A stretch of DNA of 64,000 nucleotides, taken from the NCBI GenBank assembly GCA_963727455.1, contig CAVSGG010000008.1:352001-416000 (forward strand), given 5' to 3'. Positions within the stretch are counted from its first letter, which is position 1. The number at the start of each line of letters is the position of its first letter. The notes under the pieces were generated by a model. That model ran no database searches and was not told where the DNA came from. It saw nothing but the letters and a program-made list of their open reading frames with translations. Position numbers and translations under genes: made by a program. Source of the DNA: Candidatus Krumholzibacteriota bacterium (GTDB lineage Bacteria; Krumholzibacteriota; Krumholzibacteriia; JAJRXK01). Shown in pieces: positions 6,078 to 17,709 of this stretch.

Positions 6078-8036
6078 ATGCCCTTCACTGGCGAATACCT
6101 CGACTTTGCCCATGCAAGCACGGACGATCTGCAGACTCGTATTTTCGAGCTTCTCACGCTGGTGGAAACCAGTCGCGAGCTGCTACGCGCCCACGACGCC
6201 GATGACGTGGCGCGCCGCGTTTTGCTCTCCGTCATCGGAGTTCTCGGCGCCTCCTCCGCCAGTGTCCTGCGACGAGATCCCGTGGGCGAGCGCATGGAAC
6301 TCTTGGTCCACGCGGGACTGGATATCGAAGAGAGACTCGAATTCCATCTCCCCGACACGATGGTGGAAGCTTTCGAACAGAAGAGCGACGGACGGCCTTT
6401 CCGCGTCGACCGCGATCTCGTTCAGGGGCCAGCCCGCGATTTTCTGCACTCCTACGAGAAGGTGCTCGAAACACTCGATGCGGCGGTAGTGTGTCCGCTC
6501 ATCGGACGTCAGGGGCTCTTCGGCTTTCTCCTCTTGGGACGCCGCCTCCTGAGCGAGGGATATTCCTCGAACGACCTGGAGGTTTTCGCGAGTTTGGCCG
6601 AGCTCTACACCCTCGCATTGGAACGCGGTGCGGGTCCCGCGCCCATTTTGGGGCGTGCTCCCGCGGAGGTGCCGCGCGAGGTCTCCCTGGCTCTGCGCAA
6701 ACTCCGAGAATTGTATCCGCCGCTGCGAGGAATCCTCGGCGAAAGCGAGGTGATTCTCCAGCTTTTCCGCGACATGGTTCAGCTTGCGCCGAGTCGTGCC
6801 ACCGTTCTCATACAGGGAGAGAGCGGCACGGGAAAGGAAATAGTGGCTCGCGCCATCCACGAACTCTCGGCGCGCCAAGGCGGTCCGCTGGAAATCGTCG
6901 ACTGTTCCTCCATTCCACGCGAACTCATCGAGAGCGAACTCTTCGGACACCTGCGCGGCGCATTCACCGGCGCGGTGCGCGACCGACGCGGCGCCTTCGA
7001 GCTGGCGCACCGAGGCACACTGTTCCTGGACGAAATCGGAGACATGAGCCTCGCCTCGCAGACGCGTCTGTTGCGCGCACTACAGGAGGGACGCTTCCGG
7101 CCGGTGGGCGGAGAGAAGACGCGTTCGGTGGACGTTCGGGTGATCGCGGCCACCAACGTCGATCTGAGGGAGGCTGTTGCTCGCGGCGAATTCCGCAAGG
7201 ATCTGTTCTATCGGGTTCAGGTCTATCCCCTCAGACTTCCGCCCCTGCGCGAGCGCGTGGGAGACATCGCCATCTTGAGCCGCGCCTTCCTCAAGCGTTT
7301 CTACGCGGACTTCGGATTGAAGGAACCCATCGTAGATCCGGAAGTGATCACCGCTTTGCAAGCTCATCTGTTTCCGGGAAACGTGCGCGAACTTCAGAAC
7401 ATGGTCGAAGCCCTCGCCATAAGAAGCCGTGACAAACGTCACGTTCGACTCGAACATCTACGGCGCGTATTTGCAAGTCAGCAGTTGACGCAGCGCCCTC
7501 TTGCGGACGCGAACTCCGATCAAGGGTCGTCCCGCCCGTTGGCGAAGCACCCCTTGGAAAGCGCAAGCACCCCACCGGAAACCAAGTCGGGCGCAGCGAG
7601 CGCCGAGGGACTCGCTCCCCCCAGCGATGCGAGCGCTGAGGCCGTGGCACGGCAGATCCTCGACGCCTGGCGCCAGACCGGCTTCAATCTTCTCGAAGCC
7701 AGCCGGCGTTTGAAATCGCTGCGAACTCAGGGAGAGAACGTGGCCATCGTGGATCGGGTCCAAATGAACCACTATCTCGACGGGGAGACCCTCAGAGCTT
7801 TCATGTCGAGTGGATCCGAAGCGGAAGTTGTGGAGATCCTCTGTGCCGGATCGCAGCCGCGGCACCGCGTCGCTCGGCGGACTACCCGCCTGCTGCAACA
7901 GGCCCTGCAGGCCCTGCAGGGCGACGCGCTACACGAGACCTTCCCGCGCCTGCCGGCGCAGTACGAGCCGGTGCTACGCAAGCTAGAGAGCAAGGGCGCC
8001 GACTGGATGCGGAAACATCTGCAGCTGAACTCCTGA
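6078..8036 (+). CDS. Sigma54-dependent transcriptional activator (bEBP): GAF + AAA+ + atypical C-terminal domain
   Basis: Walker A GESGTGKE, ESELFGH, GAFTGA, LFLDEIGD, RxDLFYR, FPGNVRELQN; N-terminal GAF-like segment; AGAGGA RBS before ATG 6078. Confidence 0.92.
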   Translation: MPFTGEYLDFAHASTDDLQTRIFELLTLVETSRELLRAHDADDVARRVLLSVIGVLGASSASVLRRDPVGERMELLVHAGLDIEERLEFHLPDTMVEAFEQKSDGRPFRVDRDLVQGPARDFLHSYEKVLETLDAAVVCPLIGRQGLFGFLLLGRRLLSEGYSSNDLEVFASLAELYTLALERGAGPAPILGRAPAEVPREVSLALRKLRELYPPLRGILGESEVILQLFRDMVQLAPSRATVLIQGESGTGKEIVARAIHELSARQGGPLEIVDCSSIPRELIESELFGHLRGAFTGAVRDRRGAFELAHRGTLFLDEIGDMSLASQTRLLRALQEGRFRPVGGEKTRSVDVRVIAATNVDLREAVARGEFRKDLFYRVQVYPLRLPPLRERVGDIAILSRAFLKRFYADFGLKEPIVDPEVITALQAHLFPGNVRELQNMVEALAIRSRDKRHVRLEHLRRVFASQQLTQRPLADANSDQGSSRPLAKHPLESASTPPETKSGAASAEGLAPPSDASAEAVARQILDAWRQTGFNLLEASRRLKSLRTQGENVAIVDRVQMNHYLDGETLRAFMSSGSEAEVVEILCAGSQPRHRVARRTTRLLQQALQALQGDALHETFPRLPAQYEPVLRKLESKGADWMRKHLQLNS

Positions 8037-8105
8037 GCCCTCGCGCAGGCTTTCGAGTTTCCGCTGGAAACTCTGAACCCAAGCGCGGACTTTCGAAGCC
8101 GGGGC

Positions 8106-8149
8106 AAAAGGAAAAGCGGAGCGCCCTCCCTGAATGGGGCGCCCCGCTT
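8106..8149 (-). terminator. Intrinsic terminator on the minus strand
   Basis: 13-bp stem AAGCGGGGCGCCC/GGGCGCUCCGCUU followed by UUCCUUUU; its single G.U wobble pairs only in minus orientation. Confidence 0.7.
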
Positions 8150-8495
8150 CGAAAGACTGACGACGGGACCAATTTGGTCGGGCGCGATGCTCCCTCGCCA
8201 AGAACACCGGCCGCTTCGTCGTCAGCTCGGGGTTCGCCGATGCCGGGCGGCATCTTGCGGGAGTTCTCGCCAACTCCCCGAACCCTTTGGTCGCAACAGA
8301 ACCCTCGATTCACTCCAGCGCGATCCCCAAAAGGGGCGCCGGTCGTGTGGGGTCGTGGGGTGACCGGCGCAGCACTGCCTTGTCGAGTTCCCCTTCGGGC
8401 TCCGTCTCCTCTTCTTCCACACTTCTCACGTCCCTCGCCCGCGGACGTACCGCAGGGTCCAGATACGCGAGTCAGAGGTGTCCGTGTGGCATCGA
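8106..8495 (-). ncRNA. Candidate novel structured ncRNA, about 390 nt
   Basis: No credible ORF; many stems (8157-8165/8217-8225, 8230-8236/8279-8285, 8259-8265/8272-8278, 8336-8344/8362-8370); bounded by a sigma54-type promoter and a terminator. Confidence 0.55.
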
Positions 8496-8505
8496 CCCCT
8501 GCTTA

Positions 8506-8522
8506 AGCAGAGCCGATGCCAA
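8506..8522 (-). promoter_or_regulatory. Sigma54 (RpoN) -24/-12 promoter
   Basis: Minus strand TTGGCATCGGCTCTGCT; GG (8520-8519) and GC (8508-8507) at canonical spacing. Confidence 0.6.
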
Positions 8523-8546
8523 CTTCGCTGCGACTGGGAAAGCAAA

Positions 8547-8559
8547 GGTCAACTCATTG
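8547..8559. promoter_or_regulatory. IHF-like binding site
   Basis: ggTCAActcaTTG versus consensus WATCAA-N4-TTR (first two bases mismatch); lies between the sigma54 promoter and the putative enhancer. Confidence 0.35.
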
Positions 8560-8658
8560 TGTTCCAAACGTTTAGAAGAGGACACCGTTGCGGGCCCCAG
8601 GGACTTTTGTTGTGAAGACGGGGCGGACTCCCGGGATGTTCTGTTGTCGTTTGGTGTG

Positions 8659-8691
8659 TGACATCAAAAATGAACATCACAAGTGATGTCA
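8659..8691. promoter_or_regulatory. Palindromic operator/enhancer array
   Basis: TGACATCA-N17-TGATGTCA enclosing a second palindrome ACATCAC-AA-GTGATGT (8674-8689) in an AT-rich patch. Confidence 0.6.
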
Positions 8692-8764
8692 AGGCTGCTA
8701 GCAAGCTGCCAGAGAAGTGTTTGCGGGCTTTCTTGGGGCGCGGGCTGCTGCTACTCTGGGACCC

Positions 8765-10153
8765 ATGAGCGTATCCTCCACACTCTGGCACGGGATCGAT
8801 ACCCTGGTCTGCATGGACGAGCGACGTCGGGTGCTGCACGGCGCCTGGATTCGCAGCGAAGGACCGCGAGTGGTGGAACTGGGTGAGGGTCCATTCGAGC
8901 CACGCAGCGGCGAAAGCACGGTGGATTTGGGCGGCGGAATCGTGATTCCGGGTCTGGTGAACGTCCACCACCACCTCTGTCAGAATCTCACCCGTGCTTA
9001 TGGCCCGGCAGCCGACGCCGAACTCTTCCAATGGCTCACCCTGCTCTACCCGATCTGGGCGGGTTTCACTCCGGAAAACCTGGATCTGGCGGCCCGCGTG
9101 GGATTCGCCGAGCTGCTGCTCTCTGGCTGCACCACCACCAGCGACCACCACTACCTCTTCCCGCGCGCGGGCGCGTCCGAACTGCTGGATGCTACTTTTC
9201 ACGCCGCGCAGGCGCTGGGCATCCGCTTCCACGGAACTCGCGGATCGATGAGCGTGGACGAGTCGAAGGGGGGACTGCCGCCGCGTTCGTGTACGCAGGA
9301 TGAGAGCGTCATCCTTCTCGACAGCGAACGCGTCATCAAACGCTGGCACGATGGGACGCCCTTTTCGATGCATCAGGTCGGGCTGGCACCCTGTGCCCCC
9401 TTCTCGGTGAGTCAGGATCTCATGCGCGAAACCGCGCGCCTGGCTCGCGCCGAAGGAGTACGCCTGCACACCCATCTGGCGGAAACTCGCGACGAAACAG
9501 CGTATTGCTTGGAGCACTTTTCCTGCCGCCCGCTGGACTTCCTCGAGGAAGTAGAGTGGATCGGGGACGACGTGTGGCTGGCCCACGGCATCTGGTTCGA
9601 CGAGCGCGAGATCGACCGCCTGGGAAAAGCGGGAGTTGGCATCGCTCATTGTCCCACTTCCAACATGCGCCTGGGTTCGGGCGTATGCGCGGTGCCCGAG
9701 TTGCGCGCGGCCGGTGTCGCGGTTGGTCTGGGAGTGGACGGGAGTGCGAGCAACGACACCGCTCACATGCTCAACGAAGCACGGATGGCCCTATACCTGC
9801 GGCGGCTTTCGAGTGGAGCGGCGGCCATGACCGCCATGGAGGCGCTGGAGTTGGCGACTCTGGGGGGAGCCCGTTGCCTGGGACGCCGCGAACTTGGCTG
9901 GCTTGGAAAGGACTCGGCCTGCGATTTTGCGCACTTCGATCTTAAGGAGGAAATCGCGGCCAGCGGCGCCCACGATGCGGTAGCCGCGCTCCTCTTCTGT
10001 GGTCCCCTGCGCGCGAGGTCCGTCGTGGTGAACGGTGAAGCGGTGGTGAGGGATGGGCAGGTTCTCACCGAGGATCTGCTTGCGCTGCTTCCCGCGCATC
10101 GCGAGGCCGCCCGGCAGCTCGTGCAAAAGGCGCTGAACACTCCCAATTCCTAA
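8765..10153 (+). CDS. 8-oxoguanine deaminase-like amidohydrolase (AtzB/SsnA family)
   Basis: PGLVNVHHHLCQNLTRA, GCTTTSDHHYLFP, LAPCAPFSVS, LHTHLAET, GLGVDGSASND. Confidence 0.85.
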   Translation: MSVSSTLWHGIDTLVCMDERRRVLHGAWIRSEGPRVVELGEGPFEPRSGESTVDLGGGIVIPGLVNVHHHLCQNLTRAYGPAADAELFQWLTLLYPIWAGFTPENLDLAARVGFAELLLSGCTTTSDHHYLFPRAGASELLDATFHAAQALGIRFHGTRGSMSVDESKGGLPPRSCTQDESVILLDSERVIKRWHDGTPFSMHQVGLAPCAPFSVSQDLMRETARLARAEGVRLHTHLAETRDETAYCLEHFSCRPLDFLEEVEWIGDDVWLAHGIWFDEREIDRLGKAGVGIAHCPTSNMRLGSGVCAVPELRAAGVAVGLGVDGSASNDTAHMLNEARMALYLRRLSSGAAAMTAMEALELATLGGARCLGRRELGWLGKDSACDFAHFDLKEEIAASGAHDAVAALLFCGPLRARSVVVNGEAVVRDGQVLTEDLLALLPAHREAARQLVQKALNTPNS

Positions 10154-14622: not shown

Positions 14623-15762
14623 ATGACAGCCTACATCCTCGATGCGGTTCGTTCGCCAATGGGGCGCGCACACAAGGGCAAGCTGGCGACCGTTCGTCCC
14701 GACGATTTGGCAGCGCAGCTGGTCCAGGCTCTTCTCGCGCGTCACGAGAATCTGGAACCCGCCACCATCGACGATCTGATCGGCGCCACCGCCATGCCCG
14801 AGGCCGAACAGGGAATGAACCTGGGACGCATCGTGGCCCAGCGCGCGCAGCTTCCCGACAGCGTGCCCGGAATGACCTTAAACCGATTTTGTGCCTCGAG
14901 CCTGGAGGCCATCGCGCTTGCGGTCGCGAAAATTCAGAGCGAGATGGCTGATGTAGTCGTGGCCTTTGGTGTGGAGAGCATGAGCCGAATCCCCATGGGC
15001 GGTTTGAAGCTGTCCCCCAATCCCTGGCTGGCCGAACACAGGCCCGGCAACTACCTGGGGATGGGATTGACGGCGGAAAACCTGGTGAAGCGTTACTCGA
15101 TTACCCGCGAGGACCAGGATGCCTTCGCATTGAAGAGCCATCAGCGAACCATCGCCAGCGAGAAAAAGAGATTGTGGGAGGACGAGCGCATTCCGTACGA
15201 GCAAGAGGGAGAAATCGTCTTGGACCACGACGAGTGTCCCCGCGCGGAGACGAGTCTGGAGCTCCTCGGCAGCCTCAAACCTTCCTTTGCCCTGAACGGC
15301 ACGGTGACGGCCGGCAACAGCAGCCCATTGACCGATGGCGCGAGCGCGGTGCTGGTGGTCAGTGAGAAAATTCTGAAGGAGCTCGGCGAAGAGCCCCTGG
15401 GCCGTCTGGTGAGCTATGCGGTGGCCGGTGTCGACCCCGAGATCATGGGGATCGCGCCGGTTACTGCGGTGCCCAAGGCTCTGGCGAAGGCGGGCTGGAA
15501 ACTGTCAGAGATCGAGCGAGTAGAACTGAACGAGGCCTTCGCCGCCCAGTCCCTGGCCGTGATCCGCGAATTGGGTTTGGACCCCGAACTCACCAATCCG
15601 CAGGGTGGAGCCATCGCGCTGGGACATCCTCTGGGGATGAGTGGCGCGCGGATTGCGGGGACTCTGCTGCACGCCATGAAGCGTTCCGGCGAGCGCAAGG
15701 GACTCGCCACTCTCTGTATCGGAGGCGGCATGGGGGCCGCCGCCGCCTTCGAGCGCGCATGA
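14623..15762 (+). CDS. fadA: Acetyl-CoA C-acyltransferase (thiolase)
   Basis: [43 protein letters not shown]. Confidence 0.92.
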
Positions 15763-15788
15763 ATCGCGCCTGCATTGGAGATGTGACC

Positions 15789-17567
15789 ATGAATCAGAAG
15801 ACCTTACGACGCGGCGGGAGCTTCCTGATCGAGCTTACCCCGTTTCAGGAGATTCAAACCCCCGAAGACTTCAGCCAGGAAACTCAACTCCTGGCGCAGA
15901 CCTGCCGCGACTTCGTAAAGCAAGAGGTTCTGCCGGTGATGGAGCGGCTGGAAGCCCAAGAGGAAGGTCTCATGCCCGCCCTGCTGAAGAAGGCGGGCGA
16001 AATCGGCCTCTTGGCGGTCGACGTTCCCGAGGCCTTCGGCGGACTCAGCGCGCCCAAGACCCAGAGCATGGTGGTGGCGGAGTCCATTGCCGCGGGCGGA
16101 AGTTTTCCGGTAGCACACGGCGCGCAAACCGGCATCGGCACTCTGCCCATCGTTTATTTTGGAACAGCGGAGCAGAAGCAGGAGTGGTTGCCCAAATTGG
16201 CCACTGGGGAACTCATCACCGCCTACGCTCTCACCGAAGCCGGCAGCGGAAGCGATGCACTGGCCGCAAAGAGCACGGCCGTCCTGGACGGTGAGGAATG
16301 GGTGCTCAACGGTGAGAAGATGTACATCACCAATGGTAGCTTCGCCGACGTGGTGATCGTCTTCGCCAAAGTGGACGGCGAGCATTTCTCGGCTTTCATC
16401 GTGCCCATGGACACCCCGGGTGTTAGCCCCGGTGCCGAAGAACACAAGATGGGCATCAAGGGCAGCTCCACGACGAGCATCGTGATGCAGGACGCCCGCA
16501 TTCCCAAGGCCAACCTCCTTGGTGAGGTGGGTAAGGGACACATCATCGCCTTCAACATCCTCAACGTCGGACGGTTCAAGTTGGGCGCCGCAGTGACGGG
16601 AGCGGCGAAAGAAGCAATCGAAAAGACCATCGCCTACGTGAGCGAGCGCAAACAATTCAACAAGACTCTCAGCGAGTTCCCGCTCACGCAGAACAAATTG
16701 GGAACGATGGCGGCGCGGATTTTCGCCGCGGAGAGCGCGGTCTATCGTACCGCAGGATATTTCGACGAAGCGATCAGTGCGCTGGACAAGACTCACGCGG
16801 ATTACGACCGAGAAGTCATCGGCGCCATCGACGATTACTCCATCGAGTGCAGCATCATCAAAGTCTTCGCATCGGAGGTCCTGGACTACGTGGTGGACGA
16901 GATGGTGCAGCTCTACGGAGGCTACGGCTTCGTGGAGGACTACCCCGCCGCGCGCTATTACCGTGACTCCCGCATCAATCGCATCTTCGAGGGCACGAAC
17001 GAGATCAACCGCATGCTGATTCCCGGGATGATTCTCAAGCGGGCGATGAAGGGCGAGCTTCCGCTCTTGGCGGCGGCCAAGGGCATTCAGGACGAGTTGC
17101 TTTCCATTCCGTCGCTCGGCGAGGAGGGTGAGAGGGAAGCCTTCGCGGCCGAGCTCGAGCAGGTCGCCAAGCTCAAGAAGGCCGTTCTGCTCGTGGCGGG
17201 AGTCGCCACACAGAAGCTAGGAACCAAACTGCAGGAAGAGCAGGAAGTTCTCGTGCACGCCGCCGACATGATCATGGAAACCTACGCGCTGGAGAGCGCG
17301 GTGCTGCGTGCGCAGAAGATGCTGGCTGCGGGCAAGAAGATTCCGGCGGTGCAGGCCATGATCACCGTTCTGGTCGCTGAAGCCGTCGAGCGCGTGGGAC
17401 GCGCAGGCCGTACCGCACTGACCCACGTCACCGAGGGTGATGAACTGGGCATGATGCTGGTGGGCCTCAAGCGATTCACGAAAGTGCCGCAGGTCGACAC
17501 CATTGCCGCGGCACGCGTGGCCGCCCAAGCCCTCCTGGAGCATGGAAGCTACCGGGTGCCGGCCTAG
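15789..17567 (+). CDS. fadE: Acyl-CoA dehydrogenase
   Basis: [53 protein letters not shown]. Confidence 0.9.
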
Positions 17568-17709
17568 AGTCGAAAGAGAGCCCGGTGCCGTCCGCTGTCT
17601 CCGTCGTCCTTCCCGCCTCCCATTGAAGAAGGACGATGAAGACAGCCCCCGACGAAACCGGGCTCGCCGCGTTCTTCTTGCAGGCTGGATGCCAAGCGGG
17701 AAGCATCGC

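Follow-up and report, generated by a model that had tools for sequence, protein, structure and literature searches.

Sigma-54-dependent small RNAs (sRNAs) encoded beside their activators, such as Qrr, CrcZ, GlmY and Pxr, serve as central switches that govern quorum sensing, carbon choice, the supply of cell-wall precursors and development. In the Qrr/LuxO and GlmY/GlrR systems, a dedicated enhancer-binding protein has a nearby sigma-54 sRNA as its main or only output. These sRNAs are 100-200 nucleotides (nt) long and belong to Gammaproteobacteria, their activators are phosphorylated response regulators, and Qrr is Hfq-dependent and GlmY binds RapZ. The CrcZ gene also adjoins its activator gene, and CrcZ is about 400 nt long. 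CsrB/RsmZ-type RNAs are transcribed from sigma-70 promoters with GacA-type activators. To our knowledge, the well-studied pairs of sigma-54 sRNA and activator all come from Proteobacteria in the broad sense. CrcZ and CrcY depend on CbrB, sigma-54 and IHF, and they sequester the regulator Crc (PMC6296734). [quoted passage not shown] Here we analyze a locus in a 64,000-nt stretch of DNA from Candidatus Krumholzibacteriota bacterium (assembly GCA_963727455.1, contig CAVSGG010000008.1, positions 352,001 to 416,000), and the whole stretch is referred to as the window. The minus strand of a 728-bp spacer between two plus-strand genes of the window, 6078-8036 and 8765-10153, probably carries a separate gene that encodes a structured non-coding RNA about 390 nt long. 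Its sigma-54 promoter would be activated by the adjoining GAF-domain enhancer-binding protein, and the RNA would act in trans, most likely as a protein sponge.

By analogy, an sRNA encoded beside its sigma-54 activator is a kind of module already known from CrcZ, Qrr, GlmY and Pxr, and the locus would extend this design to an uncultured candidate phylum. It differs from the known cases in its ligand-sensing GAF activator, a one-component protein with an unrecognized C-terminal domain and not part of a two-component system, in its RNA family, which is new, and in a new repeated GGCGAG loop motif; the conserved convergent layout and the phylum are also new. The promoter, enhancer, activator and RNA lie within about 2.7 kb and form a clean and testable module, and the RNA is a candidate new Rfam family that would improve the annotation of these genomes. 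Among the papers on Krumholzibacteriota listed in our searches, no title or abstract opening concerns non-coding RNA, and we claim absence from print only within these searches and Rfam 15.

The locus resembles CrcZ/CrcY in having a sigma-54 promoter and a dedicated enhancer-binding protein (both here predicted), a similar size and a repeated short motif. However, the motif of the window RNA is the G-rich GGCGAG in hairpin loops, whereas CrcZ carries A-rich single-stranded motifs, and the activator is a GAF one-component protein, whereas CbrB is a receiver-domain response regulator. The window RNA gene is also convergent with the activator gene, and Hfq was not found in the window's genome. 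The comparison with CrcZ made in the original prediction, an earlier reading of the bare sequence, is apt as an analogy but not as family membership, because no Rfam covariance model matches the RNA and its repeated motif is not A-rich. For Pxr, the likeness lies in an sRNA gene beside a sigma-54 regulator gene, its own predicted sigma-54 promoter and several stem-loops; the window RNA differs in its length of about 390 nt, its convergent orientation, its GAF-type activator, its phylum and the lack of an Rfam match. As with Qrr and GlmY, a single output is suggested, since the same upstream repeats were not seen at any other promoter of the window's genome, but no homology between these sRNAs and the window RNA was detected with Rfam.

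A predicted structured RNA on the minus strand of the spacer

The following features make up the predicted RNA gene.

8104-8496, minus strand: predicted non-coding RNA of about 390 nt (fold, conservation in the sister copy, no conserved open reading frame, no Rfam match)
8428-8448, minus strand: hairpin of the 5' domain with a GGCGAG copy, variable among relatives (predicted unpaired probability only 0.18)
8336-8370, minus strand: hairpin whose C-rich loop (8345-8361) contains CCCCAC twice (unpaired probability 0.97-0.98)
8230-8285, minus strand: three-way element of the 3' domain, with outer stem H1 around H2 (8259-8279, loop UUGGCGAGAA) and H3 (8239-8254)
8156-8226, minus strand: second element of the 3' domain, with long stem H4 around H5 (8185-8209, loop UUGGCGAG, two G.U pairs) and H7 (8167-8179)
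8104-8149, minus strand: intrinsic-terminator-like hairpin (8114-8149) and U-rich tail (8104-8115), seen in the minimum-energy fold and in the covariation of helix 8

The start of the RNA is placed about 11-12 nt past the GC of the -12 element, and its end is placed at the U-tract. For 8104-8496, the minus-strand fold has an energy of -190.6 kcal/mol and a z-score of -3.92, with none of 100 shuffles as good, whereas the plus strand of the same interval has a z-score of -0.81 and 21 of 100 shuffles are as good. Two G.U pairs lie in the hairpin at 8185-8209 and one lies in the terminator, and the consensus structure of the homologous copies described below contains 44 G.U cells versus 10 A.C cells, which fits a minus-strand RNA. 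The original prediction had argued for this strand from the G.U wobbles, and both the pairs and the difference in fold between the strands bear it out.

The terminator hairpin at 8114-8149 is GC-rich and is present in the minimum-energy fold, and its tail (8104-8115) contains 8 U in 12 nt. In the relatives, the corresponding helix 8 has 15 pairs, 6 of which show double changes, and 95.2% of its cells are paired. The proposed terminator and U-tract thus have the form of an intrinsic terminator with compensatory changes. A simple terminator scan of 7800-9000 found none at all, this hairpin included, probably because the bulge and loop of the hairpin exceed the 3-8 nt loop rule of the scan.

Only short open reading frames (ORFs) occur in the RNA interval of the window, on both strands, and they are not conserved. 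Across the ten copies, the ORFs of at least 30 aa do not agree in position, frame or sequence, one copy lacks them on both strands, and close copies are separated by 1-nt indels. No ORF is common to the ten copies in position or sequence, in agreement with the earlier claim that the interval holds no credible protein gene. In Rfam 15, no family reaches its gathering threshold on the window, nor on any of 7 homolog loci, and in E-value mode a search of 7900-8900 returns only unrelated chance-level rows (E >= 1.1); the lack of a known family is as anticipated. Covarying pairs, a strand-specific fold and the lack of a conserved ORF together characterize the element as a structured non-coding RNA, with the covariation taken from ten related sequences in a model-fitted alignment of the 3' 184 positions.

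In genus g1 the region is flanked by two plus-strand genes, and short ORFs occur on both strands, so that a plus-strand element (the 3' untranslated region of the activator gene or the leader of the amidohydrolase gene), a small-protein gene or a DNA repeat may be considered in place of a minus-strand RNA gene. We regard these readings as extremely improbable. The plus strand folds no better than its shuffles, the G.U cells exceed the A.C cells, and the U-tract and promoter are oriented for the minus strand. In genera g3 and g4 the locus lacks the amidohydrolase gene, no ORF is conserved, and each genome has a single syntenic copy, the second copy in the bin belonging to a co-binned sister genome.

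Homologs with covarying structure in one family

The covariance model covers the 3' 184 positions of the RNA and was built for this part only. A BLAST search of 40 relatives finds the element in three genomes of the same genus and in two genomes of a second genus. The window's genome (G000) and 8 of the other 9 species genomes in its family (f1) have matches over the full length of the model (E 1.6e-44 to 5.9e-14), in four genera with one copy per genome, and a family-wide search with laxer filters returns the same 9 of 10 genomes. In the remaining genome (G003), the RNA, the activator domain and the amidohydrolase were all not found, and the locus is either lost or in an assembly gap. No strong match is seen in 141 genomes of the phylum sampled from other families. 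Three matches outside the family (E 0.004-0.009) were set aside as noise, covering only 34-113 nt of the 184-position model. A scan with a 25-base core pattern gives 4 matches in a genome collection, which are the loci of G001, G002, G004 and G009, and 4 matches in a metagenome collection, two of which are near-identical to G001 and G008. The other two metagenome matches lie inside coding sequence and are false.

The ten copies have predicted RNA lengths of 345-409 nt and share one layout, in which upstream repeats are followed by a GG-N10-GC promoter, the RNA, a terminator hairpin and then the 3' end of the convergent activator gene. One of the copies is a second copy in the same assembly, on contig C9, with 80% identity over the spacer. 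Between the two, the RNA is 87% and the promoter 94% identical, compared with 59% for the part of the spacer that lies upstream of the promoter and 28% for the sequence past the terminator. A paralog is ruled out by about 240 kb of collinearity at 82-95% identity (G000 C8:260690-498684 versus C9:12-228961, the window being C8:352001-416000), and the copy on C9 is an ortholog from a co-binned sister population. Other apparent paralogs in the collinear stretch are thus really orthologs as well. The collinear stretch makes up about 7% of the bin, in agreement with the contamination estimate of 6.68%, and part of a sister population seems to be included in the bin.

Pairs were counted in the model-based alignment of the ten copies, for which the stored consensus has 58 pairs in 8 helices. 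Standard pairs are formed by 93.1% of cells, versus an average of 80.2 among shuffles, none of 500 of which is as high, and the share is only 42-51% when the partners are slid by 1-3 columns. Double changes occur in 34 of the 58 pairs, versus a shuffle mean of 17.4 (0 of 500) and 4-11 pairs when slid. By helix, double changes affect 6 of 7 pairs in H1, 6 of 8 in H3, 4 of 8 in H4 and 6 of 7 in H5, and all cells (100%) are paired in H2. A separate MAFFT and RNAalifold analysis of seven copies gives 53 pairs, 13 of them with compensatory changes. In the 5' half, the consensus stem (RNAalifold columns 163-167/195-199) surrounds the conserved C-rich loop. The homologs that the original prediction had called for are thus present within the family, and their structure is conserved with covariation.

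The loops are conserved where the stems are not. In every one of the ten copies, the sequence of the H2 and H5 loops is (U)UGGCGA(G/A) while the stems covary, and the terminator loop also reads UUGGCGAGA in 7 of 10 copies. Each RNA has 2-5 GGCGA(G/A) loops, with five in the two most loop-rich copies, and the CCCCAC/CCYCAY motif of the central hairpin is kept in all ten. The loop motifs are mostly unpaired by prediction, with a few exceptions (0.67-1.0, versus an RNA-wide mean of 0.29-0.36).

A length of about 390 nt and a multi-branched, densely paired fold would also suit a large structural or catalytic RNA, and GCGA fits the GNRA pattern, so that the GGCGA loops could make GNRA-like tertiary contacts. 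We consider such a role very improbable. The loops are conserved over 6-8 nt, which is more than GNRA needs, the 5' half is poorly conserved, and the RNA is confined to one family. The tight coupling to a signal-dependent promoter also suggests regulation.

A predicted sigma-54 promoter and upstream repeats

The promoter region contains the following features.

8506-8521, minus strand: sigma-54 -24/-12 element TGGCAT-N5-CTGCT, with GG and GC invariant in ten copies
8548-8562, minus strand: IHF-like site, a weak match, proposed in the original prediction, with its TTGA core kept
8596-8613 and 8630-8647, strand not applicable: direct repeats ending in TGTTGT, candidate half-sites of the activator, at about -100 to -150
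8659-8691, strand not applicable: nested palindromes, candidate upstream activating sequence, at about -163 to -195 from the predicted start

The sigma-54 consensus is TGGCAC-N5-TTGCW, with GG at -24, GC at -12 and an exact spacing between them. The sequence TGGCATCGGCTCTGCT at 8506-8521 on the minus strand is a good match. The promoter pattern TGGCAYNNNNNYTGCW has 2 matches in the 64-kb window versus 0.19 expected, and none of 100 shuffles reaches 2. A GG-N10-GC word stands in register in all ten copies, 190-253 nt upstream of the conserved 3' domain; the GG, the GC and their spacing are invariant, the flanking consensus letters are kept, and the spacer varies freely. The position of the word, its rarity among shuffles and its invariance all agree with the sigma-54 motif of the original prediction. 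The genome also has rpoN, as a 474-aa open frame with PF04552 at 217.8 bits (G000:C8:25937-26407), and a scan of 7800-9000 flags no sigma-70-like promoter. A second sigma-54-like word at 8697-8712 on the minus strand was dropped, as it is not kept in the sister copy.

The -24 element lies within an imperfect palindrome at 8488-8523 (TGGCATCG ... CGATGCCA), so a look-alike word also appears on the plus strand. In the look-alike, GG and GC stand one base too far apart, and G001 does not keep the symmetry. We take this palindromic look-alike to be coincidental.

A palindromic array had been proposed at 8659-8691, and two nested pairs of fully complementary arms are found there: 8-nt arms at 8659-8666/8684-8691 (TGACATCA/TGATGTCA) and 7-nt arms at 8674-8680/8683-8689 (ACATCAC/GTGATGT), each with 100% complementarity. 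The upstream repeats of the window consist of an ACATCA/TGATGT variant and two TGTTGT, and half-sites of the TGTTGTG/CACAACA type, often palindromic, occur 90-200 bp further upstream of the promoter in all ten copies. The TGTTGT hexamer is also found upstream in other genera. The upstream palindromes and TGTTGT repeats are candidate activator sites at about -100 to -195. In the 3.46-Mb genome there are 6 ACAWCA-N0-8-TGWTGT palindromes, and 3 of them are at the two copies of the RNA locus. The remaining 3 are not near any of the 28 sigma-54-like motifs in the genome, so that no second target of this enhancer type is seen.

An IHF-like site had also been proposed, at 8547-8559. A candidate site is present and its TTGA core is kept, but the match is weak, with about 7 of the 9 specified positions of the IHF consensus judged by eye to agree. 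Only the TTGA core is kept in this region in the relatives, and the three most distant copies have AT-rich stretches instead. The genome has three genes of the HU/IHF family.

A convergent GAF activator linked to the RNA

The spacer is flanked by two plus-strand genes.

6078-8036, plus strand: convergent GAF/sigma-54 AAA+ enhancer-binding protein of 652 aa, the proposed activator
8765-10153, plus strand: 8-oxoguanine deaminase-type amidohydrolase, a divergent neighbor given for context only

The product of 6078-8036 contains a GAF domain, a sigma-54 AAA+ domain (PF00158, 223.1 bits) and an AAA lid, and the GAFTGA loop and Walker A motif can be read in its translation. The domains and the GAFTGA loop confirm the enhancer-binding protein assigned to this gene by the original prediction. 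No NCBIfam equivalog model matches the protein at its cut-off. In all ten copies, the convergent activator gene lies beyond the RNA terminator, with its stop codon about 10-70 nt further as read from the sequences and ORF tables. Within family f1, the C-terminal 144 aa of the activator occur in the window's genome and, of the 9 others, in exactly the 8 that have the RNA, and they are found weakly in 4 of 5 genomes of family f3. The linkage expected between the RNA and this activator family thus holds in 10 of 10 copies, and the same genomes of family f1 hold both. From this linkage and co-occurrence, we infer that the product of 6078-8036 is the cognate activator of the RNA gene.

The C-terminal 144 aa (window 7602-8033, plus strand) give a confident all-helical model with a predicted local distance difference test (pLDDT) score of 91.3. 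Only the first helices of this domain look Fis-like by eye.

The close convergent arrangement, with a gap of about 10-70 nt in every copy, raises the alternative that the locus works in cis, in which transcription converges into the 3' end of the activator gene and acts by interference or antisense pairing, the RNA having no role in trans. Convergence is also kept for a different RNA beside distant activator homologs in family f3, as described below. This alternative is improbable in our judgment. A strong terminator halts the RNA before the stop codon of the activator gene, so overlap with the 3' end of the activator mRNA is possible only for the hairpin region, and interference needs neither covarying stems nor invariant loops.

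Possible mode of action of the RNA

In the mechanism that we propose, sigma-54 RNA polymerase would transcribe the RNA from the -24/-12 element at 8506-8521. The GAF enhancer-binding protein would activate this promoter in response to a signal presumably sensed by its GAF domain, binding the TGTTGT/ACATCA-type repeats about 100-195 bp upstream, and an HU/IHF protein may help to bend the DNA between the repeats and the promoter. Transcription would end at the hairpin and U-tract at 8104-8149, and the RNA would then act in trans. In its 3' domain, covarying stems would present the invariant GGCGA(G/A) in 2-5 apical loops, and the central hairpin would present CCCCAC. The most likely action would be the repeated sequence-specific capture of one RNA-binding protein, as by a sponge of the CsrB/CrcZ kind.

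The window RNA resembles CsrB/RsmZ in having several hairpins with the same short motif in the apical loops and in combining variable stems with invariant loops. It differs in the motif, which is GGCGA(G/A) and not GGA in an A(N)GGA context. The RNA is not assigned to CsrB/RsmZ, as its loops read UUGGCGAG and are not GGA-centered, and CsrA was not found. A protein sponge is nevertheless the most likely action, with multi-site base-pairing second, because one invariant loop word on variable stems is a hallmark of titrating RNAs.

The same gene and promoter could instead produce an RNA that acts by base-pairing, with the GGCGAG and/or CCCCAC loops as seeds for several mRNAs in the manner of Qrr or RNAIII. 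Conserved single-stranded motifs in apical loops would suit such a role, a C-rich loop is a common seed type, and no matching RNA-binding protein has been identified, CsrA and Hfq being among those not found. On the other hand, one motif of 6-8 nt in up to five loops, the terminator loop included, is more typical of titration. Moreover, a weak test on 2313 crudely predicted starts, chosen beforehand by a Shine-Dalgarno-like word, shows no enrichment of the loop complements: CTCGCC is present in 74 windows around starts versus 113 control windows, and GTGGGG in 59 versus 55. We consider base-pairing rather unlikely.

Several observations weigh against the sponge and, more broadly, against the sigma-54-dependent RNA gene as we describe it. 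CsrA (PF02599) and Hfq (PF17209) were not found in the genome, which is 88.85% complete. Elsewhere in the genome, hairpin loops show no enrichment of TGGCGAG, since 97 of its 963 occurrences (10.1%) lie in simple hairpin loops, versus 6.7-13% for 25 permuted 7-mers. For the C-terminal domain of the activator, Pfam gives no match and neither does a Foldseek search of the PDB at E <= 0.001, and with no recognized family or fold its DNA-binding role is presumed. The IHF-like site is weak. The 5' end of the RNA and its transcription are both predictions. The covariation counts come from a model-fitted alignment of only ten related sequences, which leans towards structure. The 5' half is variable, and MAFFT and RNAalifold give only 5 pairs on all ten copies. 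Finally, the U-tract is poor in 2 of the 10 copies (G008 and G009).

Five GGCGAG words within 132 nt on contig C17 lie inside a membrane-protein ORF and were rejected. The genome encodes two proteins with an RNA recognition motif (RRM), which are only a lead as partners of the RNA. On a bolder form of the sponge reading, the RNA would be the sole output of an orphan GAF activator with a previously unseen C-terminal fold, and it would sequester a protein that reads GGCGAG loops, so that a Csr/Crc-like global post-transcriptional switch would have been invented independently, in a candidate phylum with neither CsrA nor Hfq found; we hold this view only tentatively and think it somewhat doubtful. 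Taken together, the features of the original prediction are found at or near the positions given for them, and the checks proposed for it that we ran (Rfam, homologs with covariation, activator linkage and ORF conservation) all turned out in its favor.

Related elements and neighboring genes

The amidohydrolase at 8765-10153 is of the 8-oxoguanine deaminase type (615.6 bits versus a cut-off of 532). It adjoins the RNA locus in genera g1 and g2, and another gene stands there in genera g3 and g4. It is not part of the conserved module.

Beside the distant activator homologs in family f3, a convergent RNA-like element is seen at L042:1963-2206(-), L043:1937-2170(-) and L044:1230-1459(+), in G031, G016 and G026. 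The element has upstream repeats of the TTTCATCA type, a GG-N10-GC word and a terminator with a long U-run, and its conserved 230-244 nt contain a CCCCAC hairpin loop and GCGAG words. RNAalifold gives 63 pairs for three sequences, 10 of them compensatory, and no Rfam family matches. With filters off, the family f3 loci reach only 17-18 bits against the model of the window RNA, and homology between the two RNAs is therefore not claimed. The element is a candidate sister version of the locus, which shares the CCCCAC loop and the convergent activator but has a different RNA.

A second sigma-54-like word, TGGCATCCAGCCTGCA, lies at 17679-17694 on the minus strand of the window, just past the terminators of a peptidase C25 gene (17839-20244, minus strand). 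It is followed by a single long hairpin of about 100 nt (element 17568-17694) with a fold z-score of -5.46, whose end meets the stop of an acyl-CoA dehydrogenase gene in convergent orientation (15759-17567). The element is 96% identical in the sister copy and is present in 4 of the 9 other genomes of the family. Judged by its sequence features, it is a candidate for another sigma-54-dependent small RNA, some 9 kb away from the first.

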